A DNA stretch of 64,000 bases from an uncultured Gammaproteobacteria bacterium (GCA_964635715.1 CAZWNZ010000001.1:74358-138357), one strand, 5' to 3'. Positions 5,418 to 62,983 are shown, counted from the first letter of the stretch. Notes: generated by a model from the letters alone, not told the origin. A program made the numbers and translations.

Positions 5418-6405
5418 AATTGACGAAATTGCCACACATCCTTTACAGACAACTTATTGGGAGGATTTTAGAAAAGCTTGGGGAAATGAAGTTTTAGAAA
5501 CTCCCTGGGGGATTCTCACGGTTCACAAAATTCCGGCAACTTCCTACAAATTAGCCATTTTTGAAAAAGGACCGGCACCCAGCCGAGAGATGTTAATAGG
5601 ACTAAGGGATATTGCGCAAAATAATAATATTATATTCATCAAATTAGAACCTAATGTTGGCTGGGAAATTCTAAATTCTAAATTCCAAATTCCAAATAAA
5701 TCCGAATTAATTAAAATTCTAAAAGAAAACGGAGCCGTTCCAGGAAAGCGTTTTTTTACCCCAACAACTTTTTGGATTGATTTAACTAAGTCCGAGGAAG
5801 ACCTGCTAAAAAGTTTTACAAGTAAAACCCGCTACAACATCAGACTCGCTGAGAGAAAAGGAGTAAAAGTGAAAGAAGATAATTCCGAGAAAGCTTTCCA
5901 AAGCTATCTCGATTTAACCCGAGAGACAACTCAAAGGCAGGCTTTCTTTGCACATACAGAAAAATATCACCGGCTTATGTGGAAGTACCTGGGTGAAAGC
6001 CAAGAGATAAAAGATAAAAGAATTGCACATCTAATGACAGCAACTTATCGGGGCAAAATTATCACAACATGGATACTTTTTACCTGGAAAAACTTTTTGT
6101 ATTATCCCTACGGGGCTTCAACCAATGAACATAAAGAGGTCATGGCCAATAACTTAATGATGTGGGAAGCGATAAAATTCGGTAAGAAACTCGGACTTAC
6201 CACCTTTGATCTCTGGGGGAGAGAGGAAGGTAAAGGATTCACAAAATTTAAGGAAGGTTACAATCCCAAAGTAATTGAGTTTCTAGGCACTTGGGATTTG
6301 GTGGTGAATAAATCAATTTACTGGATTTATAGAGTAGCGGAGGGAATTCGTTGGAAAATCTTAAAAACTTCAGCAAGAATTGGTTTATCCCGCCATAGAT
6401 TTTAA
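5407..6405 (+). CDS. FemAB-family peptidoglycan interpeptide-bridge peptidyltransferase
   Basis: KTRYNIRLAERKGVKV and overall FemX/FemAB-like layout; ATGA overlap with the helicase stop. Confidence 0.65.
   Translation: MTNKIDEIATHPLQTTYWEDFRKAWGNEVLETPWGILTVHKIPATSYKLAIFEKGPAPSREMLIGLRDIAQNNNIIFIKLEPNVGWEILNSKFQIPNKSELIKILKENGAVPGKRFFTPTTFWIDLTKSEEDLLKSFTSKTRYNIRLAERKGVKVKEDNSEKAFQSYLDLTRETTQRQAFFAHTEKYHRLMWKYLGESQEIKDKRIAHLMTATYRGKIITTWILFTWKNFLYYPYGASTNEHKEVMANNLMMWEAIKFGKKLGLTTFDLWGREEGKGFTKFKEGYNPKVIEFLGTWDLVVNKSIYWIYRVAEGIRWKILKTSARIGLSRHRF
5667..5701. repeat. Heptamer tandem array (AAATTCT/AAATTCC units) inside the FemAB-like CDS
   Basis: aaattctaaattctaaattccaaattccaaataaa; encodes EILNSKFQIPNK. 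Confidence 0.6.
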
Positions 6406-30327: not shown

Positions 30328-31368
30328 ATGTTGGCGATAGATACCAGCTGCGACGAAACTTCCGCTGCTGTAACTGAAGGTACAGCAATTCTTTCAAATG
30401 TTATTTGGTCACAAGCTTCTGCACACGCAAAATTTGGCGGAGTTATGCCGTCCCTTGCTAAAAGAATGCATGAAGAAAGAATTAATTTCGTTGTTGAAAA
30501 GGCCTTAAAAAAAGCATTCCCCAAATCCCCATCTACCATCAACCATCTACTATCTACCAAAATTGATGCCATTGCCGTCACTGTCGGGCCCGGCCTTTCC
30601 ATAGCTTTAGGCGTTGGCATTAATAAAGCCAGGGAAATCGCCGAAAAATATAATAAAAAGCTTATTGCAGTAAATCATCTGGAGGCCCACTTATTCTCCC
30701 CATTCGCGAATTCTAAATTCGAAATTCTAAATTCTAAATTCCCAATGCTTGGCTTGGTAATTTCAGGCGGCAATACAATACTAGTTAAGATTAACAAAGT
30801 TGGGTCCTACAATATTCTTGCACAAACCACCGATGATGCTTTAGGGGAAGCTCTTGATAAAGCTGCTAGAATGCTCGGACTTGGCTATCCGGGAGGTGCA
30901 ATTTTGGAAAAGATGGCTAAGCTTGGAGATTCTAAAAAATATAACCTTCCTGTTCCTATTGTCGGTCAGGAAAAAAGAATGATTTTTACCTACTCCGGTA
31001 TTAAAACCTCTTTCTCGCGACTTGTTGAATCTGAAAAACCATTAACGAAAGGGGAAGTTGAAAATTTAGCAGCATCATTTCAAAATGTTGCCTTTAAACA
31101 TATCGAGCGCGTGCTACAGTATTACTTAATTCACAATTCTCTATTCAAAATTCAATATTTATTGGTCGGTGGCGGCGTTTCTGCCAATGTCGAAATTCGA
31201 AAAAGGTTGAGAAATCTATGTAAAAAATATTCAATAAATGTAGTATTTCCGACAAACAAAAAACTATATGGAGATAATGCAGCAATGATTGGAATAGCTG
31301 CTTATTTAAATCAAAATTTTGTAAAACTGGAGGAAATTGACCGGAAGCCTAACTTAAAATTAGCCTGA
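30328..31368 (+). CDS. tsaD: tRNA N6-adenosine threonylcarbamoyltransferase TsaD (Kae1/Gcp family)
   Basis: MLAIDTSCDETSAAV canonical N-terminus; the ORF could instead start at 30283 (ATGA overlap with TsaCE); carries the heptamer-encoded insert ANSKFEILNSKFP. Confidence 0.88.
   Translation: MLAIDTSCDETSAAVTEGTAILSNVIWSQASAHAKFGGVMPSLAKRMHEERINFVVEKALKKAFPKSPSTINHLLSTKIDAIAVTVGPGLSIALGVGINKAREIAEKYNKKLIAVNHLEAHLFSPFANSKFEILNSKFPMLGLVISGGNTILVKINKVGSYNILAQTTDDALGEALDKAARMLGLGYPGGAILEKMAKLGDSKKYNLPVPIVGQEKRMIFTYSGIKTSFSRLVESEKPLTKGEVENLAASFQNVAFKHIERVLQYYLIHNSLFKIQYLLVGGGVSANVEIRKRLRNLCKKYSINVVFPTNKKLYGDNAAMIGIAAYLNQNFVKLEEIDRKPNLKLA
30709..30743. repeat. Heptamer tandem array (AATTCTA/AATTCGA, 5 units) in-frame inside tsaD
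   Basis: aattctaaattcgaaattctaaattctaaattccc. Confidence 0.65.
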
Positions 31369-34710: not shown

Positions 34711-35391
34711 TTATTCTTTTGAAGATTCTTCAGTAGGTGTCGCACCCTCAGCAGGAACTTCTCCCTCAGTAGGTGTCGCACCCTCAGCAGGAACTTCTCC
34801 CTCAGTGGGAGCCGGGGCTTCTACAACTTCCTCTTTTTGAGGAGGTTCTACTTTAGCAAGAATCGCTTCCAGATCGCTTTTAATTTCAACCTTTGACTTA
34901 TCATAGTTGAGATCCTTTACGAAAACTGACTGATCAACCTCTGCAAGTGCGCTTACGTCTATTTCAAATTTTTCAGGAAGATCGCCGGGCAATGCCTCCA
35001 CCTTAATTTCATTAAGATATTGGACAACTGTTCCGAGGGCTTGTTTCTCCGCGGGTGATTCGCCTGATAGCTCAACAGGAATATCCGCTTCAACTTTCTC
35101 CTTAAGGTCAACCTGCAAAAAGTCAACATGGACAGGCGCATCTGTGATTGGGTTGTATTGAAGATTGTGAATTAAAACTGGCTTTTCCTCATTTTCCACA
35201 ACAAGCGTTAAAAGACCGGTCTCACCTATTTCCTTGAATATTTTTTCAAAATCTTTAAGGTTAACCTGAACCGATTGAGATTTAACTTTTTTTCCATAAA
35301 CATTGCCAGGAAGAATTCCTTCCTTGCGAAGGTTTTTTACTTTCCTACCCTCCAATGTCCTTTTGTCTGCTTTTAATATCGTTTTTGCCAT
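34711..35391 (-). CDS. rplY: 50S ribosomal protein L25 / general stress protein Ctc with acidic repetitive C-terminal tail
   Basis: MAKTILKADKRTLEGRKVKNLRKEGILPGNVYGK; tail contains tandem EGEVPAEGATPTEGEVPAEGATPTE. Confidence 0.8.
   Translation of the reverse strand: MAKTILKADKRTLEGRKVKNLRKEGILPGNVYGKKVKSQSVQVNLKDFEKIFKEIGETGLLTLVVENEEKPVLIHNLQYNPITDAPVHVDFLQVDLKEKVEADIPVELSGESPAEKQALGTVVQYLNEIKVEALPGDLPEKFEIDVSALAEVDQSVFVKDLNYDKSKVEIKSDLEAILAKVEPPQKEEVVEAPAPTEGEVPAEGATPTEGEVPAEGATPTEESSKE
34736..34808. repeat. Tandem ~36-nt direct duplication inside the rplY 3' tail
   Basis: aggtgtcgcaccctcagcaggaacttctccctcagt repeated twice. Confidence 0.7.
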
Positions 35392-41153: not shown

Positions 41154-41375
41154 TTATTTGACAGGGTCCCACCCAGGTTTTCCAAATGGGTGACACCGGC
41201 TCACTCTCATAATTCCTAAAAGCATGCCTTTCTTAAATCCGTATTTATTCAAGGCTTCTATTGTATACTCAGAACAGGTCGGTGTAAAACGGCACGCATT
41301 TCCTAACATCGCAACCAAAATCGGGGATATGTATTTCCGATATAAACGAATCAGGTAAATAGATATCTCTTTCAT
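41154..41375 (-). CDS. yidD: Membrane protein insertion efficiency factor YidD
   Basis: YRKYISPILVAMLGNACRFTPTCSEYTIEAL...GIMRVSRCHPFG. Confidence 0.8.
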   Translation of the reverse strand: MKEISIYLIRLYRKYISPILVAMLGNACRFTPTCSEYTIEALNKYGFKKGMLLGIMRVSRCHPFGKPGWDPVK

Positions 41376-41716
41376 TTCATTATTCCTGCATTTTTTAACG
41401 AGGTTCGCACCTCCTTCATTAATTCTACCGTTGAGACTCTGGAAATTGTTGTCTTAGCTAAAAAAACAACATCGTAGCCTACATTTAAATTTATACTATC
41501 AAGCCTGACTGCTTCACTCATTGCTCTTTTAAATCTATTTCTGTCAACGGCTTCCTTTGCTACTTTTGTAGAAACAATAAAACCGAATCTACAAGGTTCT
41601 TCGTCGGTTCTTTTAAAAAAGGCAACACCAAAACTGTTTGATTGCAAGACTTTACCCTCATTTTGGATTCTGGAAAAGTCTTTCGCCCCTGTAATTCTAT
41701 ATTTTTTAGCAAGCAT
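41372..41716 (-). CDS. rnpA: Ribonuclease P protein component
   Basis: RITGAKDFSRIQNEGKV...RFGFIVSTKVAKEAVDRNRFKR. Confidence 0.85.
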   Translation of the reverse strand: MLAKKYRITGAKDFSRIQNEGKVLQSNSFGVAFFKRTDEEPCRFGFIVSTKVAKEAVDRNRFKRAMSEAVRLDSINLNVGYDVVFLAKTTISRVSTVELMKEVRTSLKNAGIMK

Positions 41717-41937: not shown

Positions 41938-42013
41938 GAGTAATATTATATCAAAGAAATTATAAATTAGGAATTAGAAATTCGAAGTTAATTAAAATGG
42001 GGCTTGACGAATT

Positions 42014-42123
42014 GTGGATAACTCATTAAAAGTACATAGTACAAAGTACCTAGTACTTAGATTCCTAACTTCTGTCCTTGCCCTAATTTTTAGCTTCGTA
42101 CTAAGTACTGTGTACTAGGCACT
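42014..42123. promoter_or_regulatory. dnaA upstream control region: perfect DnaA box plus GTAC-rich imperfect inverted repeat
   Basis: TTATCCACA on the minus strand at 42014..42022; arms AGTACATAGTACAAAGTACCTAGTACTTAG (42031..42060) and GTACTAAGTACTGTGTACTAGGCACT (42098..42123) are mutually reverse-complementary at CCTAGTAC and AGTACTTAG. Confidence 0.5.
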
Positions 42124-42130
42124 ATTTTAT

Positions 42131-43492
42131 ATGAATAATGAACAAATTTGGAAAGATTCTTTAGAAATAATTAAAGTAACTGTTTCGCCGGCAATTTTTT
42201 CCACATGGTTTTCTCAAACACATCTTATATCTTTGAATGATTTAGATGAAAGGGTGATTGTGGAAGTGGGGTGCCCAACCTCTTTCGCAAAAAATACTAT
42301 TGAAGCAAGATATTTTGGACTAATTCAAGACTCATTGTCAAAAGTGGTTGGCAAAAAATGTGATTTGTCTTTTATCGTAAAATCAAAACCAAAAGTTGAT
42401 AAAGCTCCAATTGACGACACGTCCCCTCTTTTCTCAACTGAAAAAGATGAAAAAACTACTTTAGAAATACTTCAAAGGTCACGAATTAGACCCAGTTTTA
42501 CCTTTGAGAATTTTGCCGTTTCAGGAAGTAATCAAATGGCCCACGCAGCCGCGGAGGCTGTATCGAGAGATTTGGGATCCGCTTATAACCCTCTTTTTAT
42601 TTGGGGTGGGGTAGGGGTCGGAAAAACACACCTCATGGTCTCTGTAGGAAATTATGTTTTACGAAATGATTCTGGAAAAAAAGTTCTTTTTTGTACGGGA
42701 GAAGATTTTACAAACGACATTGTAGAGGGGATTAGAAACAAGACAACGCAGGCATTTAGAAATAAATATAGAAAACTTGATCTGTTACTAATTGACGATA
42801 TTCAGTTTATTGCAGGTAAAGACACTGTGCAGGAAGAATTTTTCCATACATTTAATGCCGTCACTTCTGTCGGTGGTCAAATAATCCTTACTTCTGATCG
42901 ACCACCTTCTGAGATATCCAGACTCGAAGAAAGACTTAGAAGCCGCTTTGAAGCAGGATTAATTGTGGACGTAGCACCACCGGATTTTGAGTTAAGATGT
43001 GCAATAACTCAAATTAAATCCAGAGAGAAAGGAATTGATCTTTCATCAGAGCAGGTTCAAATGATTGCAGCCAATTCCGAGGCGGCTAGAAAAATCGAAG
43101 GGGTTCTAACAAGAATATTGACAGAGATTCATCTCAAAAACATTGTTGTCACCAATGAACTCATTGAATCTATGTTTGCTAAAAGCCTTGATACCTCCGG
43201 TAAAATCACCAAAAGCTCACCGGAACAAGTAGTTGAGGCGGTTTCTAAGTATTTTCAGCTTGGCAAGAGACTTCTTTTGGGAGATAGCCGGGCAAGACCA
43301 ATAGCCCGACCCAGACAAATTTTAATGTATCTTTTGAGAACACATCTCGGCCTTCCCCTCGAAGAGATTGGAAGAATAGTCGGAGGAAGGGACCATACAA
43401 CAGTGATGCATGCTGTGGAAAAGATTACACAACTAGCCACAAACGATGTGCAAATCCGTGAGGATATTTTGAAGATAAAAAGTGTAATTTGA
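42131..43492 (+). CDS. dnaA: Chromosomal replication initiator DnaA
   Basis: AAA+ Walker A GGVGVGKTHL, Walker B LLLIDDIQF, C-terminal DNA-binding helix ...DHTTVMHAVEKI. Confidence 0.95.
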   Translation: MNNEQIWKDSLEIIKVTVSPAIFSTWFSQTHLISLNDLDERVIVEVGCPTSFAKNTIEARYFGLIQDSLSKVVGKKCDLSFIVKSKPKVDKAPIDDTSPLFSTEKDEKTTLEILQRSRIRPSFTFENFAVSGSNQMAHAAAEAVSRDLGSAYNPLFIWGGVGVGKTHLMVSVGNYVLRNDSGKKVLFCTGEDFTNDIVEGIRNKTTQAFRNKYRKLDLLLIDDIQFIAGKDTVQEEFFHTFNAVTSVGGQIILTSDRPPSEISRLEERLRSRFEAGLIVDVAPPDFELRCAITQIKSREKGIDLSSEQVQMIAANSEAARKIEGVLTRILTEIHLKNIVVTNELIESMFAKSLDTSGKITKSSPEQVVEAVSKYFQLGKRLLLGDSRARPIARPRQILMYLLRTHLGLPLEEIGRIVGGRDHTTVMHAVEKITQLATNDVQIREDILKIKSVI

Positions 43493-43740: not shown

Positions 43741-44862
43741 ATGAGAGTACAAGTACTACAAGAGAACTTAGAAAAAGCTATTGGCATAACAACAAGATTT
43801 GCCAGTGCCAAAGCACAACTTCCCATTCTTGGTAATGTACTCATATCAACCCGCAAAAGTAAAATTTATATTTCTTCAACAAATTTGGAAATTTCGGCTT
43901 CTGTTAAGATTGGTGCAAAAATTGAAGAAGATGGTGAAATTAGTATTCCTGCAAAAATTATTTCGGAATTAGTACCAAATTTACCCAAGGAAACGATTGG
44001 TCTACAATCGGAAAAGGAGCAGCTGAAGATTTCCACAAACGGCTTTACTTCAACTATTCTGGGAATGGATTCAACAGACTTTCCCAAAATTCCGAATGCT
44101 TTAAATGAGAAAAACACAATCAGTTTTTCTAAGAAGCTACTTTCTGAAAGTTTAGGTAAAGTCGTATTTTCAACTTCTACAGATGAAACACGTCCCATTT
44201 TGACAGGAGTTCTTTTTATTCTTAAAGATAATTCTTTGTCTTTAGTAGCAACTGATGGCTTTCGTCTTTCTAGAAAAAATGTTTTACTAAAGGATTTTAA
44301 AGGAGAGGAAAAATCTGTTGTAATTCCGAAAGGAATCCTGGGGGAGATAATTCGAGGTGTTTTTGAAACAGACGATATTTTGTTTGATCTTGAAGAGTCT
44401 GAAAAACAAGTTCTCTTTGAATTGGAGGATACGGTACTTACATCCAGACTTCTGGAGGGGGAGTATCCGGATTTTGAAAAGATTATTCCAAAAGAATCAA
44501 ACATAAAAGTGTTTTTAGATAAGGAGGAATTTTTAAGGGCAGTAAAATTGGCTTCGATATTTGCCAAAGAGGCTGCAAATGTTGTGAAACTGAAAATTTT
44601 GAAGGATTCCATAAAAGTTTCTGCAGAAAGCGGACAGGCGGGGAGCCAGGAAACAAAAGTCGATGCGAAAGTTGAATCCGGAATTTCGAATTTTGAATCT
44701 GGATTTGAGATTGCTTTTAACTTCCGGTATTTGGAGGATTTTATTCATTCGGTTACAGGCGAAGAATTATCTATGGAGTTTGTAAGTTCTACTTCTGCCG
44801 GGGTGTTTAAGGACACAAGCGATGAAAATTATCTTCATCTAATTATGCCGGTTAAGATGTAA
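43741..44862 (+). CDS. dnaN: DNA polymerase III beta sliding clamp
   Basis: Three-domain clamp pattern (MRVQVLQENLEKAIGITTRFAS...) directly downstream of dnaA. Confidence 0.9.
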   Translation: MRVQVLQENLEKAIGITTRFASAKAQLPILGNVLISTRKSKIYISSTNLEISASVKIGAKIEEDGEISIPAKIISELVPNLPKETIGLQSEKEQLKISTNGFTSTILGMDSTDFPKIPNALNEKNTISFSKKLLSESLGKVVFSTSTDETRPILTGVLFILKDNSLSLVATDGFRLSRKNVLLKDFKGEEKSVVIPKGILGEIIRGVFETDDILFDLEESEKQVLFELEDTVLTSRLLEGEYPDFEKIIPKESNIKVFLDKEEFLRAVKLASIFAKEAANVVKLKILKDSIKVSAESGQAGSQETKVDAKVESGISNFESGFEIAFNFRYLEDFIHSVTGEELSMEFVSSTSAGVFKDTSDENYLHLIMPVKM

Positions 44863-45335: not shown

Positions 45336-48023
45336 TTATTTGCAGAAATAGTCTTCCGGTTTAACCCAGCGACCGTTCATTTGAAACTCAATGTGTAAAT
45401 GAGTATTTGATCCTTGGTTAAAAAGAGTGGTAATCTTTTGCCCCGACGTTACTGTTTTTGGAACTATTTTACTTGCAACGTGAGTAAGGACAATTGAATA
45501 TGAACCTGTAGTATCTTTATATATAACCGAAAAACCAACTCCGTTGTTGTTGAAGCTTCCGTCATAATTCCATACTACTTCTTTTCCTAAAACTGTCGGA
45601 GCATAGACGGTATTTATTCCAGAGGGGAATACGTCGAATGCATATCCGTAATACGAGCAGGCTGGAGAGTCGCAACCTGTTTGTTGAGGTAATGAGTATC
45701 TATAAGGGATTCCTCCCATCATATTCCAATAAGAAGTACTTCCATGGCCCGTGTTGGTGGCTGGATTGTAGGAAAAATTGTTTTGATTAAGAGGTACGGC
45801 TGCCGGGACAGGGCATGAAATGGGTGGGGTCCCAAAAGTAACCGACGCGCTTGTTTCTGCTGTTGTGCCGGTTACTTCTCCCGTATCCGCTGTCACAGTA
45901 ACAGTATCTATTATTGCCGAATTTGTAAAACTGTTGTCGTAAGTTGAAGTATAGGTAAACACATATGGAAGGGATGGTGATATTGAGTCTATCGTAGTTG
46001 GAGCGTCACTAATTGGAGGACAGTTTTTATTGGCCGTACTAATTACTTTGCAGTCGTATTTAATAGATATGTTTGTAAGGGCACTTCTCTTAGCCCTGAT
46101 TGTTATTTTATAAGTAATTGTCTTCGGAAGTTCTTTGTTTGTAAAAGGTCCGGGCGGCTCCGGAGTTTTAATAATATCAATATACGGATTAGACGTTCTT
46201 CCAAAAGTACTTTCAGACACGGGGACTACATAGGCTCCGGAGTTGATTATAAAAAGAATTAAGGCAACCACAATAGGCAAAGCAAATATGGTTATTAAAA
46301 TTGGCATGCCAATGGAAGAAAAGACTGCTCCCCCCAGAGCTGTAAAAAATCCCCCTATGCTTCCACCCACTACACCAAGAGAAGAAATTCTACCGGAAGC
46401 AAAACTTGCAAGAAAACCGGTGCCCACACCTAGGGCAACCGCTCCCGCTAAACCAATAAAAGGAGCTGTAATTAAGGCAATAACGGAACCTACTATGTAA
46501 GGAGCTGCTTTCTTAACTTTACTCCAATCAATTTTACTTGCAATAAAACCAATCACTGCTCCAATGGCTGTTCCAATAACTGGAACCACACTACCAGCAG
46601 CGGCGCCGGTGCCTGCGCCAGCCGCTCCTCCTGCGGCAGTTCCGACAGCTTTTCCTGCAAATGAACCAGCCAGCTTACCTGCTGTACTTGTGACAGCTTT
46701 TTTCCCAATCTTTTTACCGGCTACAGAGACTATCTTTTTTATTCCAAAATTTATACCGGTTTTCCCTCCGATAAAATTCAAAATCGGTCCGAAACCATTT
46801 TGTACAGCAATTCTTCCGAAAAAAGTTGTCCCTTCCCACGCAACAGCAGAGGTGCCCATTCCAAAATAGGACAAAGCACCCTGAACAGGTATAGAACTGT
46901 ATGTTTTGGCCAGTAAACTATCAACAGGTAATTTATCAATTAAACCATCCAGTCGCACAGAGGCCCTCCGTAAAATACTTGTTTTTATTTTGTCTATACC
47001 GAATTCTTTTACTTCCCCAAGGAAAGAACCTTGGTTATTAAGCAGGTCCAGATTGGTTTGAGGAATCTGGGACAAATTGTACTCATGGAAATCTGTCTGC
47101 GGTGAGTCAGAAAAGGTTATTTGTAGTTTATCGATCTCTTTGGGTCCAAAAACCACATTGGTAAAATTTTCTCCAAAAGTGGAAACAATCAGTTCACGAT
47201 TGAAAGAATACTTGGCAAAGTATTGATCCGAATTCTCTAAAGCAACGTTAATAAAATTTTGTCGGAGATTGATATCTGGTAATGTTTTTGTAATTAAGTC
47301 TTCATTTGTGGCAAATGCACTAGTAATAACAGTTTCTTCGGCCAGTGATTTGCCTTGGAGATTTTTTACCGTTTCGTATGCAGCCTCTTTGGCCAGAATG
47401 CGCATTTCTTCTTGTGTGGTGTTTTGCGGATTAGACAAAGAAATTTTGTTTTCGATTGTCTCGGTTATTTGGTCGACCAATCTTTTGGGGTCTGCTTTTG
47501 CGGCCTCTTTAAGTACGTCAATTTGTTTTGCTTGCTCATCGGATATTGGTGGGATTTCAGTACCCTCAACTTTTACATATGTCTTCGTGTTTTTTAGTTG
47601 ATCAAAAAGTTCTTGCCTTCTTTTAATTGAGGCCTCGACTTCTTTTTGAGCTTTTTGGATGGTTTCTTTAATCTCCGCCTCGCGTTTCTGTTGCTCCATT
47701 TCTTGGAGCTCACGCGTTTCTTTGTCGGGTAAATTGGACTCAACTGGTTTTTCTTCGTTTTGAGATCCTGAGACAATCCCTACCAAGGCTTTTTGAGCAT
47801 CATGAACTGTTAGCAATCTTTTTTGGGCGTCTTTTGCACTCAAATCTATTTGTACACCCGTCAGATTTTTAATAAAATTTACAAAAGATTGTCGATTTTT
47901 CCAATTGTATTCTCCAGAATAAAATGGCGTATCGGATGAATATATGGCGTCTTCCGGAAAAAAATGTCCAAAGGCCAACATTAAATCGTCCAGATTTTTT
48001 TGTGTAATACTAATTTTTGCCAT
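45336..48023 (-). CDS. Giant bifunctional protein: cytoplasmic coiled-coil N-domain, Gly/Ala-rich multi-TM block, extracellular M23 peptidase domain (candidate T4SS cell-wall hydrolase, VirB1/PrgK-type role)
   Basis: E/K-rich coiled coil; about 6 TM helices in a GAGTGAAAG-rich region (aa ~470-600); C-terminal M23 motifs (...AFDVFP... and SNTHLHIEFQMNG); 2 nt downstream of VirB4. Confidence 0.6.
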   Translation of the reverse strand: MAKISITQKNLDDLMLAFGHFFPEDAIYSSDTPFYSGEYNWKNRQSFVNFIKNLTGVQIDLSAKDAQKRLLTVHDAQKALVGIVSGSQNEEKPVESNLPDKETRELQEMEQQKREAEIKETIQKAQKEVEASIKRRQELFDQLKNTKTYVKVEGTEIPPISDEQAKQIDVLKEAAKADPKRLVDQITETIENKISLSNPQNTTQEEMRILAKEAAYETVKNLQGKSLAEETVITSAFATNEDLITKTLPDINLRQNFINVALENSDQYFAKYSFNRELIVSTFGENFTNVVFGPKEIDKLQITFSDSPQTDFHEYNLSQIPQTNLDLLNNQGSFLGEVKEFGIDKIKTSILRRASVRLDGLIDKLPVDSLLAKTYSSIPVQGALSYFGMGTSAVAWEGTTFFGRIAVQNGFGPILNFIGGKTGINFGIKKIVSVAGKKIGKKAVTSTAGKLAGSFAGKAVGTAAGGAAGAGTGAAAGSVVPVIGTAIGAVIGFIASKIDWSKVKKAAPYIVGSVIALITAPFIGLAGAVALGVGTGFLASFASGRISSLGVVGGSIGGFFTALGGAVFSSIGMPILITIFALPIVVALILFIINSGAYVVPVSESTFGRTSNPYIDIIKTPEPPGPFTNKELPKTITYKITIRAKRSALTNISIKYDCKVISTANKNCPPISDAPTTIDSISPSLPYVFTYTSTYDNSFTNSAIIDTVTVTADTGEVTGTTAETSASVTFGTPPISCPVPAAVPLNQNNFSYNPATNTGHGSTSYWNMMGGIPYRYSLPQQTGCDSPACSYYGYAFDVFPSGINTVYAPTVLGKEVVWNYDGSFNNNGVGFSVIYKDTTGSYSIVLTHVASKIVPKTVTSGQKITTLFNQGSNTHLHIEFQMNGRWVKPEDYFCK

Positions 48024-48025
48024 AA

Positions 48026-49894
48026 TTATTTGTCAGCGTATGGATTGGTGTTTACCTTCACAACTTCCTGTGGTTTAGTTGTAATTAATCTGTTTTCTTC
48101 TTCCGAAGCAACAATTCTAATTGGGGCATGGTGTGGCCCTGCAAAGAAAATGCCTTCTCCAACATTGGCTGCAAGAAGAAGCCTTTTTTCTCCTTGGGAC
48201 AAATAGAAGACCTCGCCAATCTTATCAATTGCGGCAGGGGATTGCTTTAAGAGAAGCTGCATGGCGCTATTTGTGACAATAGCCTTTCCAATGTCCTGTC
48301 CGAGGAAGTCCTCGACGTCCTGAGTGATTGTAGTGAGTCCTAGATAGTATTTACGGGCCCTTTTAACAACACTCCATAAAAATTGGGCAGTATCGGGATA
48401 TCTCATCATGTGCCAAGCTTCATCTACAATCAAAATTCTTCTCTTGAGATTCTTTTTAACCCTAGTCCAAATATAGTCGAGAATAATAAACATGGCGATT
48501 GGGCGAATGGCGTCCTGCATATCTTTAACAGAAAACACAGTGAAGGGATTGATAATGTTAATGTTAGTTTGTTGATCGAAAATTCCTACAAAGCTTCCTC
48601 TAACAAATTTTTCAAGTCTGGCGGCAAGATCCAGAGCTTCAGGTGATTCCATGCCGATCAGGGTTTTGTAAAGATCTTCCATGAGAGGGGGTTCTTTGCC
48701 TTGGGTCTCGGGATCCATAGTAATTCCTTTGGCCCGATAAGTCATTATTAAGGCACGGTCAAGCAATGCCTCCTGAATTGGGGTGATTGCCCCCATAATC
48801 ACTTTCATTAGGGAATGAAGAGAAAGTATTTTTAGTCCAAGCTGATTTTCACCCTCTTCACGGATTTGGGACAGATCAAAAGGATTAATTTTTGCCTGGG
48901 AATTGTAGGAGAATGATATATATTCACCACCCACCGCTTCGGCTATAGATTTATATTCGCTTTCAGGATCAATAACTATTGTTTCGACCCCTGTCATGAG
49001 CGACCTTAGCGCCTCAAGTTTAACAAAATAGGATTTACCGGCTCCCGATGTTGCAAAAATTGTCATGTTGGCATTTTGCAGGCTAAACCTATCAAAAATA
49101 ATAAAAGATTCGTTTTGAGAATTCATTCCATAGAGAACACCTCTGTCACTTGAAAGTTCGGTTGAGGTTAGGGGAAAAGTTGTGGCAACCGATGTGGTAT
49201 CCATATTTCTGGTGATGTTAAGGCGGTCGATGCCAAACGGGGCAGTTGCCAAAAACCCCTCTGACATATTTAGCATGGCATGTTTGCTGACAATCATAAG
49301 GGATCCAAGTTGAGATTCGACCTGTTTAGTTATTTGATTCAGTTCCTCAACGGAATTTGCAGGGATTGTAATGTAAAAACCAAATTCGTAAAATCTTTCA
49401 ATTCCTTTAACTAATTGTTCCTGCAGCGCCTGAGCATCCTCTAATTTTGCCTGTGTCACCGGATCAACCAGTTTTCCCCGTTCGATATCTGTGGTCATTT
49501 CAGCTTCCATTTCGGCGATTTTTCGCCTTAGATCATCAAGAACGCTCTTTCCGTCGACTGGATAGATATAAAAAGAAATATCCAAAGAGGTATCAATATT
49601 GACTACGGGTTCGAGCCACCCCGGGGCGACAAATCTTGGATATCCACCGACAAAAATTGTCCTGAAATAGACATCGTTGACTTTGATATAGTCAAAATCA
49701 ACCTCAACCGATTGGGGTGAAATTACATCAAGTAGGTTCATTCCCTGATTCATAACCGAATAGGCGGCTGAAACAACCGGAGGCTTAACCTCCGTATTAG
49801 AATCTTGAATCTTGAATCTTGAATCTTGAGACGTGGAGCCTAAATCCTGATCTGCAGGTTTTATATTTGGTGTTTTTGTAATATTGTTTTGCAT
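48026..49894 (-). CDS. VirB4/TrbE/CagE-family T4SS ATPase, C-terminal ~620 aa (middle plus ATPase domains)
   Basis: Walker A IFATSGAGKSYFVKLE, Walker B ILIVDEAWHMM (the hhhhDEAW typical of VirB4), mid-domain KVNDVYFRTIFVGGYPRFVAPGWL. Confidence 0.8.
   Translation of the reverse strand: MQNNITKTPNIKPADQDLGSTSQDSRFKIQDSNTEVKPPVVSAAYSVMNQGMNLLDVISPQSVEVDFDYIKVNDVYFRTIFVGGYPRFVAPGWLEPVVNIDTSLDISFYIYPVDGKSVLDDLRRKIAEMEAEMTTDIERGKLVDPVTQAKLEDAQALQEQLVKGIERFYEFGFYITIPANSVEELNQITKQVESQLGSLMIVSKHAMLNMSEGFLATAPFGIDRLNITRNMDTTSVATTFPLTSTELSSDRGVLYGMNSQNESFIIFDRFSLQNANMTIFATSGAGKSYFVKLEALRSLMTGVETIVIDPESEYKSIAEAVGGEYISFSYNSQAKINPFDLSQIREEGENQLGLKILSLHSLMKVIMGAITPIQEALLDRALIMTYRAKGITMDPETQGKEPPLMEDLYKTLIGMESPEALDLAARLEKFVRGSFVGIFDQQTNINIINPFTVFSVKDMQDAIRPIAMFIILDYIWTRVKKNLKRRILIVDEAWHMMRYPDTAQFLWSVVKRARKYYLGLTTITQDVEDFLGQDIGKAIVTNSAMQLLLKQSPAAIDKIGEVFYLSQGEKRLLLAANVGEGIFFAGPHHAPIRIVASEEENRLITTKPQEVVKVNTNPYADK
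49800..49827. repeat. Four perfect GAATCTT heptamers at the 5' end of the VirB4 ATPase ORF
   Basis: gaatcttgaatcttgaatcttgaatctt; encodes QDSRFKIQDS at codons ~23-32. Confidence 0.7.
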
Positions 49895-49898
49895 ATTT

Positions 49899-49930
49899 TC
49901 TAGATTCTAGCTACTAACTACTAGATTCTT
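49899..49930. repeat. CTAG-rich heptamer array (TCTAGAT TCTAGCT ACTAACT ACTAGAT) in the 19-nt gap separating the two VirB4 ORFs
   Basis: Provides TAG stops on the coding (minus) strand between 49914..50648 and 48026..49894. Confidence 0.6.
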
Positions 49931-50648
49931 GTTTGTCCAATATAACTTCCGGTTCTTTTTTAACAGCCGGCTTCTCGGGATTGTAAATGGAATAGTAAAG
50001 ATTGATAAGCTCAGGTGTGGTAAGTTGTTTGAATTTCAGTCCCAATCTCCCTGCCTGGCGGATCAAGTGGTCGCGTCTTGGATAAAGGGTGATTTTTGCT
50101 TTCTTAATAACGTACGATTTCGGAAATGGCAGGGGTCCTCCTCCTTTGGTAATCGCGGCTACAGATTTGGCAATACCAAGTTCAAGGGGGGATAAATAAA
50201 GGATAACAAAAAATCTTTTACCCAAAACATTTTTCTTTTTAACGGATTCACTGATAAAGTTCCGGTAGTTTTGCATCAAGTTGGAGAGTAGCGGTTGGGT
50301 CATTTTTTTTGCCTGTTCATCGAGAAAATTCAGATAGGATGAAATATCTTTTTTCTGTGTCAGAACTACAATCTGTGTAGAAAAAGTCAGAGAGTTTATC
50401 ATGGCTGCATAGGCTGCAATTACCGCCTCTTGTTCTTTTTCTGAAAGGAGACCAAAGTTTAAAGAAGTAGATTCCATAATGAGTGAGGCGCCGCCATCTT
50501 TATAGATAACAATGTCGTTTGTTATATCCGCAACCGGCACGAAATCCTGTGTTGTGGCCGTAAGCGGTTTGTCGGGAACACTCAGGAAAGGAATCTTAAG
50601 TTTAGAATTTTGAATCTTGAATTTTGAATCTTGAATTTTACTATTCAT
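49914..50648 (-). CDS. VirB4 N-terminal-domain-like protein (separate ORF; apparent split of the VirB4 gene)
   Basis: DITNDIVIYKDGGASLIMESTSLNFGLLSEKEQEAVIAAYAAMINSL resembles the N-terminal region of monoderm-type VirB4 ATPases (tentative, by eye); 244 + 622 aa equals the usual VirB4 length; 5' end carries the heptamer-encoded MNSKIQDSKFKIQNSKLKIP. Confidence 0.5.
   Translation of the reverse strand: MNSKIQDSKFKIQNSKLKIPFLSVPDKPLTATTQDFVPVADITNDIVIYKDGGASLIMESTSLNFGLLSEKEQEAVIAAYAAMINSLTFSTQIVVLTQKKDISSYLNFLDEQAKKMTQPLLSNLMQNYRNFISESVKKKNVLGKRFFVILYLSPLELGIAKSVAAITKGGGPLPFPKSYVIKKAKITLYPRRDHLIRQAGRLGLKFKQLTTPELINLYYSIYNPEKPAVKKEPEVILDKQESSS
50591..50639. repeat. Seven-unit heptamer array (GAATCTT/GAATTTT alternating) at the 5' end of the VirB4-N ORF
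   Basis: gaatcttaagtttagaattttgaatcttgaattttgaatcttgaatttt. Confidence 0.65.
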
Positions 50649-51016
50649 TTTATTAGTTTTGATTTTTTAATCAGCCCATTTAATATTTTCAAAGTAATTA
50701 CGGATTGATCATATAAATGATCGAACTCCTTTTGTCCAATAAATTTGACATCTCGGGATATGATTAGTTGGTTTTGCAATTCGGTAATAGACCCTGCTGA
50801 GATTCTAAAGAACTGCAATTTTTCTTTATAGGAATATCTACTAAATCCTTCAGCAATATTGCTTGTTATTGAAACTGCACAACGCCTCATTTGATTTGTA
50901 ATTCCAAACATCTCAGATTTCGGAAAATTACCAGTCACTTCGTAGATGCCAATAACAAGTTGATGCCCTTCTTTCCAGGCATTTAAATCAGTAAAATTAA
51001 TAATTTTATTTTCCAT
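50645..51016 (-). CDS. Four-helix-bundle protein (TIGR02436 / 23S rRNA-IVS protein / Avd family)
   Basis: ITNQMRRCAVSITSNIAEGFSRYSYKEKLQFFRISAGSITELQNQLIISRD is a textbook family signature; ATGA-coupled to VirB4-N and abutting the stop of the upstream gene. Confidence 0.8.
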   Translation of the reverse strand: MENKIINFTDLNAWKEGHQLVIGIYEVTGNFPKSEMFGITNQMRRCAVSITSNIAEGFSRYSYKEKLQFFRISAGSITELQNQLIISRDVKFIGQKEFDHLYDQSVITLKILNGLIKKSKLIK

Positions 51017-52108
51017 TTAATTTAATGGTGTTCCACTAGATTCGAGATTCAAGATACTAGATTCTACTTGTAGTCTTTTTCCTGTAACAAGTATTGGTGG
51101 AATTATCTCTCCCTTAGCCTCAAAATTGACGGGCATAAATTGATAACCGTCCTTTTCGCTGATAATGCTGTATTTCCCGTTTTCGAGAGGTGTGACTGCC
51201 ATAAAATGGCCAAGCTTGTTGCTTCTGAGAGCCCTTATTGGTCTTCCATATTCATCTCGTATTTCGATTATTGCGCTTTCTATTATTCTTCTGGCCTCAT
51301 CGACAACTTGTCCGACAATAACATTTGGACTGGTTGGGGGATTGGGCGGTGTGGCATCGATCGAGAATATCGCCTCTTTTGTAGACACTATTTCCTCACC
51401 GACGACTGTCGGATTGACTTGCTGAGTTTGGAATTGTGCTGTTTGGTCAATGATTTTTGGTTTTTCCTCCACAACAAGATGGGAGGTCTGTGGTGAAACA
51501 ATTTTAACAGGGTTGCTTACCGGAATTTCAAGTTTTTTAGGTTCAGTAGAAGCTACAGGTTGGTTGGTTGGTTGGGCTACTGTCGTAGCCAGTGGTGTTT
51601 TAATACCCGCAAGTATGCCGGCTAGTTTGGAAAAAAAACCTTGTTCAGCAACCTCGAGTTTGGCAAGTGGTCCTTGCGGAGACCTGGAGCTGTCAAGATA
51701 GTTTTTAACAGCCGCATCCTGATTTTGTGTTTGAGAATTTGGGATGTTTGAGGACGGACTTTCGTCCTGAAAAAATTTCCGGATACCTGTTGTTTTTTTC
51801 CAGTGGAAAGTAGTAGGAGAATAAATTGCTTTAAAGAAAGCCAGGATCCACTGTTCCAGTGGGCGTTCCTCAAGAGGAACAAAAGCCATAGCAGCTCCAA
51901 GAATGACAAATATAATTATAAAAGGCCATTTAATAATTCCCGGAAGGGGGGTTGCGTAAAATATCAAACCAACTAATACGCCCCCCGCAAGTTCAAAGAA
52001 TTGCTTAAGAGTCATATCTCCAACCAATTTGAATTGGTAAGAACTTACGTTTTGTGGTATCGGATGTTGTTCCATGCTCTTGAGCAGGGCGAAAGAGCAC
52101 AAAAGCAA
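51017..52108 (-). CDS. VirB3/PrgI-like two-TM membrane protein with a long Q/P/T-rich extension and C-terminal beta domain (tentative)
   Basis: TM hairpin FFELAGGVLVGLIFYATPLPGIIKWPFIIIFVILGAAMAFVPLEERP in the position VirB3 usually occupies upstream of VirB4. Confidence 0.4.
   Translation of the reverse strand: MLLCSFALLKSMEQHPIPQNVSSYQFKLVGDMTLKQFFELAGGVLVGLIFYATPLPGIIKWPFIIIFVILGAAMAFVPLEERPLEQWILAFFKAIYSPTTFHWKKTTGIRKFFQDESPSSNIPNSQTQNQDAAVKNYLDSSRSPQGPLAKLEVAEQGFFSKLAGILAGIKTPLATTVAQPTNQPVASTEPKKLEIPVSNPVKIVSPQTSHLVVEEKPKIIDQTAQFQTQQVNPTVVGEEIVSTKEAIFSIDATPPNPPTSPNVIVGQVVDEARRIIESAIIEIRDEYGRPIRALRSNKLGHFMAVTPLENGKYSIISEKDGYQFMPVNFEAKGEIIPPILVTGKRLQVESSILNLESSGTPLN
51038..51065. repeat. 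Heptamer array (AGATTCG AGATTCA AGATACT AGATTCT), opposite orientation to the array at 50591..50639
   Basis: agattcgagattcaagatactagattct; lies in the 3' end of the upstream CDS. Confidence 0.55.
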
Positions 52109-52818: not shown

Positions 52819-53451
52819 TCAAGCTCCTATAGCCAAATAGTATATTGGATATTCCTCACGGGGATTTATGTCGAGGAGTTTAATTAGCGGCTTTTCGTTT
52901 AACATTCCAATTGCACAACATCCGATTCCAAGACTCGTTGACAGTAAATATATATTTTGCGCAACATGCCCAGCTTCAATATAAGGAAAATACATCCCTC
53001 TTTCTTTATATTTATCTGTGGTTCTATGAAATACAGAAGTAAGAATTATCAAAACAGAAGCTTTTTTGAACCATAACTGTTTTGTCATCCAGATCTGATC
53101 AATATCCTTGGTTGCCATTTTTCTGTGTAGAATTTCTAACCCATGACTAATTGGATTGTAGTGATATAAACCTTGCCTAATATTTCCGCCTTTCATGACA
53201 AGTATATAAGCCTCGAGCGGATATTTTGCGCCAGCAGATGGATAAACACGAAAGGGGTTTTTTTCTTCATAAGGATTTTGTCTAATTGCCGCTAGACTGT
53301 GGTATAGAATATCAGACAAAGTCTTTTTGCCCACCGTTTTTCCTGTAAAGTTCCTAGATGATGTTCTACTTTTTATGATTTTTCTTAATTCTCCGGCCGT
53401 ATTTGTTCGGGGGAGTGGTATTTTTTCTAACCTGGAATAAGTTTTGTGCAT
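52819..53451 (-). CDS. SagB-type (nitroreductase-fold, FMN) dehydrogenase of azoline/azole RiPP pathways
   Basis: RTSSRNF...YPSAGAKYPLEAYILV...GLYHYNP...KYKERGMYFPYIEAGHVAQNIYLLSTSLGIGCCAIG matches the TIGR03605 SagB-type pattern. Confidence 0.7.
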   Translation of the reverse strand: MHKTYSRLEKIPLPRTNTAGELRKIIKSRTSSRNFTGKTVGKKTLSDILYHSLAAIRQNPYEEKNPFRVYPSAGAKYPLEAYILVMKGGNIRQGLYHYNPISHGLEILHRKMATKDIDQIWMTKQLWFKKASVLIILTSVFHRTTDKYKERGMYFPYIEAGHVAQNIYLLSTSLGIGCCAIGMLNEKPLIKLLDINPREEYPIYYLAIGA

Positions 53452-53453
53452 AC

Positions 53454-54812
53454 TTAAAAAGGATGAATTTTTGATAGCTCATTAACATTCATATTTAGAT
53501 TTACATCAATATTCCTATTTTTTGGAACTTCAGTGAGTCTTTTTATGCCAAAATATGGATATCTTTCGTCGTGCCATAGAGGTACCATTTCTGGGACAAG
53601 AACCTTGACAACTTTCAAACACACTTTTTCAATTTCAGGAGTCGTCATGTCGATATAATATGCGGTGCACCCAATGTTTTTAAGCTTTGAAAGAGTGTAC
53701 TTAAGATATTCTTCATCTGTCTTGAACATTGTTGTTTTAGTCAACGAAACTTGCTTGGAGCTCTTAATAAAATTTTCGACCTGCCCTATCATATGCGGAG
53801 CTGACCACTCACGATGTTTCTGCCAATTAAACCATTCAAACGATCCTTTTGGGGGCGGAGGGTTGTTCACATAAAAATATTTTTTTCTATTTGTTACATA
53901 TCTTCTGAGCGCCTCAATCGCCGATATCTTTAACACATTAGCTGTGTCTAGGCCGGCCCCCAGGCCACAACACACCGCAGGGCCCACGCCCGTTCTGTCT
54001 ACAAGAAGGCAAACAACTGAAAATATTCCAGTGTCTAGCGTGGTATCAAAAAAATAAATCTCAAAATTATATCTGGCGAATTTTTCTACAAGTTCTTTTA
54101 ATTCTTTATTTGACTTGTCTAGCGAAATCAAGCGTTTTGGTATTTCTGGAAGAAACGAAATTACATACCCATCCCTCTCAATAATTTCACAAAGCCCCCT
54201 ATAAACAGCAAAATCAATGTTTGGACCGCAGGCGGCCCCCGTACTTATAGGCATTCGTATAACTGGTTCATTGTGTTGTTTGTGGGAATAATTTGCGTAT
54301 GCTAAAGAGGCAGGTATTAGTTTTTTCTCATGACTTATTAGATTATGCCCCATCAGCCAATTAATCTGCGAGTTTCTGGATATATTAAACTTTTTGTACT
54401 TTTTTGTGGACAGCTGTTTGGGTGTAAAAGGAACAAAAACTGTTGGATCAATGGCATTATTTTTTAACTGTATATATGATCCATGTACAAACTTTTCCGG
54501 AGTTTCGTTCAAGATACAATAATGTTCTATAGCTTCGGTTATTGAACGTTCGATGGATGTTCTCTCGTTGTCGCTTCCACCATAACCATAGGCAGTGTTA
54601 ACTTTGTTTCCTTTTGAATATCTTTCACAGGAATATATAAAAAACTGGGGAATGTCTGGCCATGTTTTACTTTGAGTTAGTTGTCCAAGTATTTTATGGG
54701 ATTGCAGGTCATTGTGGATTTTTTTAAAACGAGAAGACAATGGTAATTTTGAAAACGGAAATGTCCTTACTGCAGGGTCATGGGGCAGAGCGATTCGAGC
54801 ACCGTTTTTCAC
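53454..54812 (-). CDS. YcaO-domain protein (ATP-dependent cyclodehydratase family)
   Basis: GYGGSDNERTSIERSITEAIEHY (G-GxG-S-ERS-EA-ER motif) and PISTGAACGPNIDFAVYRGLCEIIERDG (PxSxGxAxG...E..ERD) are YcaO ATP-binding signatures. Confidence 0.8.
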   Translation of the reverse strand: MKNGARIALPHDPAVRTFPFSKLPLSSRFKKIHNDLQSHKILGQLTQSKTWPDIPQFFIYSCERYSKGNKVNTAYGYGGSDNERTSIERSITEAIEHYCILNETPEKFVHGSYIQLKNNAIDPTVFVPFTPKQLSTKKYKKFNISRNSQINWLMGHNLISHEKKLIPASLAYANYSHKQHNEPVIRMPISTGAACGPNIDFAVYRGLCEIIERDGYVISFLPEIPKRLISLDKSNKELKELVEKFARYNFEIYFFDTTLDTGIFSVVCLLVDRTGVGPAVCCGLGAGLDTANVLKISAIEALRRYVTNRKKYFYVNNPPPPKGSFEWFNWQKHREWSAPHMIGQVENFIKSSKQVSLTKTTMFKTDEEYLKYTLSKLKNIGCTAYYIDMTTPEIEKVCLKVVKVLVPEMVPLWHDERYPYFGIKRLTEVPKNRNIDVNLNMNVNELSKIHPF

Positions 54813-61973: not shown

Positions 61974-62270
61974 TTAATTGGGGAGTACGACGTTAAAATC
62001 GGTAACATTTGCTCCGGTCAGATTCTTTATAAGTAAAAGAATTAAATAAGAGACAAGGATAATAACAAGCCCTGTAATCGCAGAAGTTAATGTTTTTTTG
62101 GCTCCCTCCGCAGCTTTCGGGTCTCCTCCTGATGTAATAAATTTAAAGCCACTAATTATTAGAAGAAAGAACAGAACTATTCCTGCCAAACCTAACGCAT
62201 AGCCAATTATGTTTTTAAAAACATCTCCCAGGTCGGCGATTGTAGCAATAGAATCACTAGCCATAAGCAC
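61974..62270 (-). CDS. VirB2/TrbC-like T4SS pilin, paralog 1
   Basis: Two hydrophobic helices flanking ITSGGDPKAAEGAKKTLTSAITGL. Confidence 0.55.
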   Translation of the reverse strand: MLMASDSIATIADLGDVFKNIIGYALGLAGIVLFFLLIISGFKFITSGGDPKAAEGAKKTLTSAITGLVIILVSYLILLLIKNLTGANVTDFNVVLPN

Positions 62271-62307: not shown

Positions 62308-62643
62308 TTAAATTGAGGGGATAGCCAAAGAGAATATGTCAACACCGAAGAAGGTATTGATAAGGGCTACAATTGCCCATGCGGCGAAGACTATTACAAG
62401 GCCGACAAGAGCTGCTGTAATTTGGTTTCTGGCAGTTTCAGTTTTGACTTTATCTCCACCTGACGCAATCCATTTGATACCACCAATAACCAAAATGAAA
62501 AAGAAAATAATTGCAGCAACTATGACAATCAACCTGATACCACCCGAAATAATTTCAGGAATGGTCAAATCTCCTAATTTCTCAAAATTGGAATCACTTG
62601 GTTGAAGTTCAATTGTATCGGCTGCTAAAAGTAATTTTTGCAT
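62308..62643 (-). CDS. VirB2/TrbC-like T4SS pilin, paralog 2
   Basis: IKWIASGGDKVKTETARNQITAALVGL; the ORF runs to 62763, but the start at 62643 (MQKLLLAADT) avoids overlap with paralog 3. Confidence 0.5.
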   Translation of the reverse strand: MQKLLLAADTIELQPSDSNFEKLGDLTIPEIISGGIRLIVIVAAIIFFFILVIGGIKWIASGGDKVKTETARNQITAALVGLVIVFAAWAIVALINTFFGVDIFSLAIPSI

Positions 62644-62656
62644 TTGTATACAAGTA

Positions 62657-62983
62657 TTATCGAATAAATAGTTTACTGATGTCAAGAGCCAGTAGGTCAA
62701 TATTAAAGAAATGCTCCAACAATTCAAGTACTGCAAACGATGCGAAAAGAATAATAAGTCCAACCAAAGCGCTGGTTATTTTCCCGCGTGCGGCTTCGAC
62801 AGCTTGCTTGTCTCCACCGGAAGTGATCCATTTGATTGCTCCCATAACTAATGTAAAAAAGAAAATCACTACACCGATGATTAAGGCTAGGGTTATAAGT
62901 TTGGGGACAAAGTTTTGGAAAAAAGTTACACCATCAGAACCCAGATCTGATGTTATTGGATTAATTATTGTACTGCCTCCCAT
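62657..62983 (-). CDS. VirB2/TrbC-like T4SS pilin, paralog 3
   Basis: IKWITSGGDKQAVEAARGKITSALVGL. Confidence 0.55.
   Translation of the reverse strand: MGGSTIINPITSDLGSDGVTFFQNFVPKLITLALIIGVVIFFFTLVMGAIKWITSGGDKQAVEAARGKITSALVGLIILFASFAVLELLEHFFNIDLLALDISKLFIR

Follow-up and report, generated by a model that had tools for sequence, protein, structure and literature searches.

The 64,000-nucleotide (nt) stretch of genomic DNA analyzed here (GCA_964635715.1, CAZWNZ010000001.1:74358-138357; hereafter the window) carries two adjacent open reading frames (ORFs), ORF1 and ORF2, that correspond to the N-terminal domain and the remaining part of VirB4, the ATPase of type IV secretion systems (T4SSs). 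We regard it as very likely that the locus is an ordinary chromosomal T4SS of a Woesebacteria genome (Microgenomates; Patescibacteria or the candidate phyla radiation, CPR), that VirB4 is encoded there by two genes, and that the heptamer arrays at the gene boundaries are secondary additions representing the arms of small cassettes. The VirB4 motor of this lineage would consist of a TrsD-like protein (ORF1) and the VirB4 ATPase itself (ORF2), each translated on its own from a shared operon comprising prgI, a four-helix-bundle gene, trsD, virB4, and a gene for an 895-aa protein, and the two products presumably assemble non-covalently into a motor like the fused VirB4. A reading made from the sequence alone (the sequence-only reading) had described the locus as a virB4 gene split in two by a CTAG-rich heptamer array, and offered a pseudogenised T4SS, a genuinely two-piece VirB4, or a phase-variable switch as the explanation. 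The two ORFs that it delineated, of 244 and 622 aa on the minus strand, do exist (Table 1).

The identities of the two ORFs are supported by profile searches. ORF1 matched VirB4 profiles at N-terminal positions only (2-110 of conju_CD1110; 102-234 of VirB4_plasma with an E value of 5.5e-10). ORF2 matched conju_CD1110 (NF045971) with 375.7 bits, above the cut-off of 325, over positions 163-735 of 752, as well as P-loop_TraG with an E value of 1e-26. As the match of ORF2 begins at profile position 163, the N-terminal domain is not in the ORF2 polypeptide; that domain is ORF1. Both the Walker A motif (GAGKS; residues 284-288, 49045-49031) and the Walker B motif (LIVDEAW; residues 488-494, 48433-48413) of ORF2 are intact. 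In a fused CPR homologue of 787 aa (P0122), residues 4-199 are 48% identical to ORF1 (E value of 6e-61) and the remainder is 64% identical to ORF2. P0122 is one of the 57 among the 150 best cluster representatives of ORF2 that bear an ORF1-like N-terminal domain in the same chain. Because the profile matches are complementary and the fused relatives align to both ORFs, ORF1 and ORF2 together make up a complete VirB4; the sequence-only assignment of the two domains to the two ORFs is borne out by the profile positions and P0122. Compared with fused VirB4, the pair carries approximately 30 and 45 additional non-conserved leader residues, plus a short C-terminal tail on ORF1. The conserved sequence of ORF2 begins at the motif TEVKPP (49795), the leader before it is non-conserved, and the ATG at 49894 is the sole canonical start upstream of this motif.

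ORF1 found no match in the local copy of Pfam, and a profile of the ORF1 family retrieved nothing from the PDB sequences at an E value of 1 or below. PF26593 ('TraC-like') is assigned in the precomputed database annotation of P0001, of which the sequence is identical to ORF1, and of all the 120 homologues listed. An exact-sequence look-up of ORF1 returned no record, because the contigs in Logan break inside ORF1. Besides, VirB4 orthologs of approximately 1150-1250 aa were observed (L022, 4733-8320; L025, 4687-8316; L039, 4644-8171; also P0121, P0124, and P0125). These long orthologs match ORF2 in two separated stretches, suggesting intein-like insertions near the P-loop.

The separation of the two genes is conserved across species. 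In the gene tables of the window and its relatives, ORF1 is a separate ORF directly upstream of virB4. The database contains 1958 homologues of ORF1, and the best 120 of them are all stand-alone proteins of 219-244 aa from Woesebacteria/Microgenomates; their mean column identity is 79%, and they all end shortly after KKEPEV(I/V)LE. A scan of the GTDB species representatives yielded 54 loci, and trsD and virB4 are separate intact ORFs in all the 52 Woesebacteria species loci that possess both genes, as well as in L001-L006. The relative frame of the two ORFs varies among the species loci, with offsets of 0, 1, and 2 all occurring. In L005, the last codon of ORF1 and the first codon of ORF2 overlap within an ATGA; in L028, ORF2 begins at a GTG just before the ORF1 stop. 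Neither of the two junctions contains repeats. Such a repeat-free two-ORF arrangement in related genomes is what the sequence-only reading itself had named as evidence against a switch, and it does not support the notion that a heptamer array split VirB4. Because the split is present in all of the sampled Woesebacteria with the three possible frame offsets, it predates the arrays. In the comparison with the sister species L001, the non-synonymous (pN) and synonymous (pS) differences were 0.053 and 0.727 for ORF1, and 0.034 and 0.686 for ORF2. With pN far below pS, both ORFs are under strong purifying selection.

The two-gene architecture of trsD and virB4 is already known and has been published for Patescibacteria in general (Microb Genom 2025; PMC12102498). 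That survey describes TrsD as a remote homologue of the VirB4 N-terminus with its prototype in pGO1. In Patescibacteria, TrsD is reported to outnumber every other T4SS component, 1664 of its copies adjoining virB4, and trsD, virB4, and prgI are described as essential in Ca. Southlakia epibionticum ML1. The T4SS loci of Patescibacteria are situated near dnaA, dnaN, and rnpA according to the same survey. The window resembles these chromosomal, MPF-FATA-like systems in the set of PrgI/VirB3, TrsD, VirB4, and VirB2-like pilins, in the adjacency of TrsD and VirB4, and in the vicinity of dnaA/dnaN/rnpA. It differs from them in the four-helix-bundle cassette between prgI and trsD and in the heptad arrays read into the ends of three genes, neither of which turned up in a term search of PMC12102498. 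Among the options of the sequence-only reading, the genuinely two-piece VirB4 is the one supported by the separate ORFs in 52 of the 52 loci, by the selection on both of them, and by the published arrangement.

The TrsD/TrsE pair of pGO1 and the TraD/TraE pair of pSK41 (MPF-FATA; NF041427) likewise comprise a separately encoded VirB4-N homologue of about 200-240 aa just upstream of a VirB4-type ATPase. Unlike these staphylococcal plasmid systems, the locus studied here is chromosomal and lies beside the replication origin of a CPR bacterium, and ORF1 scored only 33.7 bits (E value of 3.2e-8) against the TrsD/TraD model NF041427, for which the curated cut-off is 200. As for single-chain VirB4 (the conju_CD1110 family and P0122), ORF1 and ORF2 cover the profile in order with the same ATPase motifs, albeit in two polypeptides.

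Four heptamer arrays, termed arms A to D, lie at the boundaries around trsD (Table 1). Arms A and C are direct repeats of each other (80% over 30 nt) with a GAAT core, and arms B and D are direct repeats of each other with an ATTC core. The A/C pair and the B/D pair are in inverted orientation to each other, with identities of 90% over 29 nt for A:D, 83% for A:B, and 71% over 31 nt for C:D. Arms A (left) and B (right) bracket the four-helix-bundle gene between prgI and ORF1 as an inverted pair, and their duplex is predicted at -21.4 kcal/mol (z of -4.5). Only 69 nt, among them the start of ORF2, separate arms C and D. Based on this geometry, a four-helix-bundle cassette armed with A and B appears to have been inserted between prgI and trsD, and C/D form an inverted pair of similar heptads without cargo at the boundary between trsD and virB4, which may derive from such an element. 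Because the insertions would have landed on gene boundaries, translation now runs into parts of the arms, which form a C-terminal tail in PrgI and non-conserved N-terminal leaders in TrsD and VirB4. The TAG-rich arm C provides stops in all frames.

Arm A encodes the final ~10 codons of prgI. Array B (50591-50640) encodes KIQDSKFKIQNSKLKI of ORF1, and the leader of ORF1 is longer than those in the aligned orthologs. The seven-unit array that the sequence-only reading had placed at the start of ORF1 does consist of about seven units, with AAAATTC and AAGATTC alternating, but it is imperfect and contains one degenerate unit; Tandem Repeats Finder (TRF) described it as period 7 with 4.6 copies (88%) or period 14 with 2.5 copies (100%). 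The perfect GAATCTT units (as they appear on the given strand) reported downstream of the ORF2 start were confirmed as array D (49800-49829 in TRF), which has 4.3 units, begins 65 nt after the ATG, and encodes SQDSRFKIQDS. The 19-nt, TAG-rich spacer between the two ORFs is real, but the heptamer array seen there is degenerate and extends into ORF1. On the coding strand, this block (arm C) reads as the units ATCTAGT, AGTTAGT, AGCTAGA, and ATCTAGA, with six TAG triplets and all three frames closed, and no array was reported by TRF at a minimum score of 30. The two in-frame stops of ORF1 (TAG TAG; 49916-49911) derive from the GTTAGTAGC part and not from a CTAG core, as had been claimed; the CTAG cores close the other two frames. 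L025 possesses a block homologous to arm C and, at the same place, a pair homologous to C/D.

The four-helix-bundle gene encodes a member of the 23S rRNA intervening-sequence (IVS) protein family. In 23S rRNA intervening sequences, a PF05635 ORF lies between stem-forming inverted ends. The window cassette shares with them the protein family ('S23p') and inverted ends able to pair, but it is located between two protein-coding genes of an operon, prgI and trsD, and not within 23S rRNA. Its arms consist of heptads repeated in tandem, which have GAAT/ATTC cores and are partly translated. The gene is missing from the site between prgI and trsD in most relatives, where prgI and trsD overlap; among the relatives fetched, only L019 and L064-066 have it at this site. 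Seven further four-helix-bundle genes were examined in L019, L022 (two), L025, L065, L067, and L069, and all of them are accompanied by inverted short-period arms with cores of the GAAT/ATTC type; those of L067 and L069 reside in unrelated gene contexts. The z values of the arm duplexes ranged from -3.4 to -8.4 against shuffled controls for six of the seven genes (computed for these six), while no inverted arms were seen at an eighth, partial copy in L025. The cassettes are about 450 bp long, with arms of about 30 nt composed of tandem heptads (once octads), the GAAT core being on the left and the ATTC core on the right. In L001, cargo-less inverted heptad pairs are present in both flanking intergenic regions. 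In the literature searched, no description was found of heptamer repeats in Woesebacteria/CPR or of heptad-flanked PF05635 genes. Tentatively, we propose that the heptamer arrays mark a family of small elements with inverted repeats, either as their arms or as the footprints left by them. Some members would bear a four-helix-bundle (23S-IVS or Avd-like) gene and others would be cargo-less hairpins. Their targets would be gene boundaries in Woesebacteria and other CPR bacteria, where they would donate coding sequence to their neighbours; we hold this general proposal to be possible but clearly short of probable.

Heptamer arrays are not specific to virB4 but are a genome-wide feature of the window. 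TRF detected 19 period-7 arrays, in comparison with a mean of 2.05 and a maximum of 5 in 20 shuffled sequences (approximately nine-fold enrichment); other periods showed no enrichment, and among the periods between 5 and 15, period 7 is the sole one with perfect arrays of at least three copies. The ATTC/GAAT core is shared by 12 of the 19 arrays (8.5% expected), and the pattern AAGATTCAAGATTC has 8 matches against 0.07 expected. Most of the period-7 arrays reside inside ORFs and are translated as 7-aa repeats such as KFQIPNS; examples are found at 3712-3744, 5666-5697, 8839-8869, 9046-9136, 10661-10693, and 30709-30741. At 3712-3744, CAG replaces TAG in the unit where TAG would fall in frame. 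The intergenic region between rnpA and dnaA (41955-42136) contains two period-7 arrays (AGAAATT and AGTACAT), and a 36-nt inverted pair of AGTAC heptads ends at the start codon of dnaA, with a z of only -1.5 for the fold. The idea that all period-7 arrays belong to inverted pairs was rejected, as the neighbourhood of the arrays in long ORFs (8839, 9046, 10661, 30709, and others) contains no inverted partner. Heterocystous cyanobacteria likewise have tandem 7-nt repeats throughout their genomes, the short tandemly repeated repetitive (STRR) heptanucleotide sequences, but the STRR units differ in sequence from those in the window, and many of the window arrays are inside coding regions.

The arrays may alternatively have arisen by local replication slippage only, that is, independently from short seeds in poorly constrained linkers, and the inversion of A/C relative to B/D would then be a coincidence of a unit preferred throughout the genome. 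We have doubts about this explanation but consider it a possible one. The single arrays in long ORFs of the window fit it, as do the different units borne by orthologous sites in different genomes and the heptad-like seeds at the ORF1 start of species lacking the cassette. It accounts poorly for the inverted short-period arms at both ends of seven further four-helix-bundle genes in five other genomes, some of them in unrelated gene contexts, for the same unit family at several boundaries within one genome, and for the core shared by the majority of the window arrays. Several observations weigh against our own interpretation. The pairing of C and D is weak, with a duplex z of -2.4 in the window and -1.1 in L025, and the RNA folds of the junction have z values of -1.75 and -2.13, so C/D may be independent products of local slippage instead of a remnant element. 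Species that lack the cassette have a short heptad-like sequence, NSKFKIP, where ORF1 begins, and array B could be partly native sequence expanded later. A structure prediction for ORF1 from an alignment of 19 sequences was unusable (predicted local distance difference test, pLDDT, of 40.8; predicted template modelling score, pTM, of 0.28). Finally, two Logan contigs from SRR8925806 that match the window at 100% identity, L061 and L063, both terminate within array B (50607-50635) and overlap there by 29 nt; this could reflect heterogeneity of the unit number in the population or a mere effect of the assembly graph.

Regardless of the origin of the arrays, the switch envisaged in the sequence-only reading, in which the repeat number fuses or splits the ATPase, is rejected as worded. 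In a simulation, each possible deletion or duplication of 7 nt was introduced, one at a time, into arrays B, C, and D; none of these changes fused the ORFs or extended the product of the ORF1 ATG beyond 300 aa. One frameshift cannot join the ORFs because the final stop of the ORF2 frame comes only after the stops of ORF1, and the junction has stops in all three frames. A separate version of the idea is an on/off switch of ORF2 or ORF1 by slippage at D or B without fusion of the ORFs, as in neuO of the Escherichia coli K1 prophage CUS-3. Arrays B and D are indeed tandem tracts within the 5' coding region, in the first ~35 codons of the two genes, with a unit length not divisible by three, and a one-unit change in D would frameshift ORF2, for which no other canonical start precedes TEVKPP. 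The neuO precedent is close in sequence, with the unit AAGACTC in place of AAGATTC, in its position in the 5' coding region, and in being read in three frames as a 7-aa repeat (PMC13001214). The break of two Logan contigs of the same genome within array B also fits such a switch. On the other hand, D has only about four units, whereas the neuO alleles range from 3 to 53 with the mode at 20 (PMC13001214). No off allele was observed where the matter can be tested. Both ORFs are intact in the window and in all the 52 species loci. The unit numbers of A and B are unchanged in a strain (SRR8925812) that differs from the window by 36 substitutions and no gaps over 1215 nt (97.0% identity). For the sister species, seven heptamer arrays of up to 8.3 units showed no difference between three independent samples, and an independent assembly of the window genome reads through C and D with equal unit numbers. 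Searches of metagenomes with exact flanks and a variable gap or with a conserved 26-mer found no strain variant of array D, and when the first 150 aa of ORF2 served as the query of a database search, only fragments of at most 89% identity and no such variant were retrieved. T4SS genes of this kind are, moreover, reported to be essential in the one patescibacterium tested (PMC12102498). We thus consider the on/off switch quite improbable. A regulatory hairpin sequestering the start of ORF2 was also considered and dropped as a main explanation, in view of the z values of the junction folds given above and of -0.8 to +1.3 for the hairpins of L001 and L022.

Two further explanations receive next to no credence. 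A pseudogenised T4SS, in which a recent nonsense or frameshift mutation would have interrupted a formerly fused virB4, would accommodate the fused homologues (P0122 and 56 others) and the stops in all junction frames, but it is contradicted by the same break in 52 of the 52 species, the selection on both halves with synonymous sites near saturation, the intact Walker motifs, the numerous stand-alone ORF1 homologues, and the conservation of the whole operon. An artefact of assembly or sequencing is just as hard to believe: repeats are error-prone in short-read assemblies and the Logan contigs do break in array B, but an independent Logan assembly (SRR8925806) reproduces the C spacer, the D array, and both frames exactly, and the break is conserved in repeat-free orthologs.

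The features of the locus are summarized in Table 1. The G+C content of the window is 37.8%, and rnpA, dnaA, and dnaN directly adjoin the T4SS cluster. The probable start of prgI is the ATG at 52075, while the longest ORF begins at a TTG at 52108; prgI orthologs lie upstream of trsD in all of the loci examined. The ATG of ORF1 overlaps the stop of the four-helix-bundle gene (ATGA), and the gene for the 895-aa protein is kept downstream of virB4 in the relatives. The sequence-only reading had suggested that a ribosome-binding site be sought before the ATG of ORF2, but this was uninformative, since a Shine-Dalgarno-like core precedes just one of the 46 genes in the window. TATAAT-like boxes are located 6-12 nt before many starts (e.g., 7906, 11199, 12958, 16846, 27348, 52784, 54887, and 61949), which suggests that leaderless mRNAs are widespread. 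Directly upstream of the T4SS operon are genes for a SagB-type dehydrogenase (52819-53451) and a YcaO/SagD-type cyclodehydratase (53454-54812), a maturation pair for thiazole/oxazole peptides; the neighbours in L061 are the same. A perfect tandem duplication of 36 nt (2.1 copies, 100% identical) was observed at 34730-34806, within the ORF at 34711..35391.

Table 1. Features of the T4SS locus, its surroundings, and the heptad-armed cassettes (window coordinates unless a locus is named).
Feature	Position	Strand	Remarks
rnpA	41372-41716	-	Chromosomal origin context
dnaA	42131-43492	+	Chromosomal origin context
dnaN	43741-44862	+	Chromosomal origin context
Gene for 895-aa protein	45336..48023	-	Same operon, downstream of ORF2; weak M23 peptidase match at C-terminus
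ORF2, virB4/trsE-type ATPase (middle and P-loop domains), 622 aa	48026..49894	-	
Arm D	49797..49829	-	4.3 perfect AAGATTC units, ATTC core; translated as ORF2 residues ~22-32, in non-conserved leader
Spacer between ORF1 and ORF2, 19 nt	49895-49913		Coding strand reads TAGCTAGAATCTAGAAAAT
Arm C	49899..49929	-	Degenerate CTAG-rich heptad block, GAAT core; covers the final codons of ORF1, its two in-frame TAG stops, and the greater part of the spacer
ORF1, trsD-like, stand-alone VirB4 N-terminal domain, 244 aa	49914..50648	-	PF26593 'TraC-like'
Arm B	50588..50640	-	AAAATTC/AAGATTC array, ATTC core; translated as ORF1 residues 4-19
Four-helix-bundle gene (23S rRNA intervening-sequence protein family)	50645..51016	-	PF05635, E=1.7e-34; TIGR02436, E=2.3e-33
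prgI/VirB3-like membrane protein gene	51017..52075	-	Pfam PrgI, E=1.2e-7
Arm A	51038..51066	-	Degenerate period-7 array, GAAT core; coding strand TAGAATCT AGTATCT TGAATCT CGAATCT; TRF period 7, 3.9 copies
T4SS pilin-like (VirB2-like) genes, two	61974-62270 and 62308-62763	-	PF18895, E=9e-10 and 5e-8; NF045849
Four-helix-bundle cassettes	Window 50588-51066; L019 3561-4063; L022 618-1019 and 2025-2467; L025 2455-2915; L067 and L069 around 1430-1950		

For the VirB4 split as it was originally posed, the significance is small, the arrangement being ordinary for the lineage. Where a CPR genome shows a "split VirB4", the appropriate annotation is trsD and virB4, a conserved and probably essential pair, and not a pseudogene or a switch. 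As a practical rule, a break that recurs from species to species in all three relative frames indicates a stable gene fission if purifying selection acts on both halves, whatever repeats adorn it. If the proposal of an element family is true, the richness of this genome in period-7 repeats would be a by-product of the element or its encoded protein. If the heptad-armed cassettes are mobile, this would explain both the odd period-7 content of these genomes and the spread of the long-enigmatic "23S IVS protein" genes outside rRNA, and it would provide a route for selfish DNA to become N- and C-terminal protein sequence.

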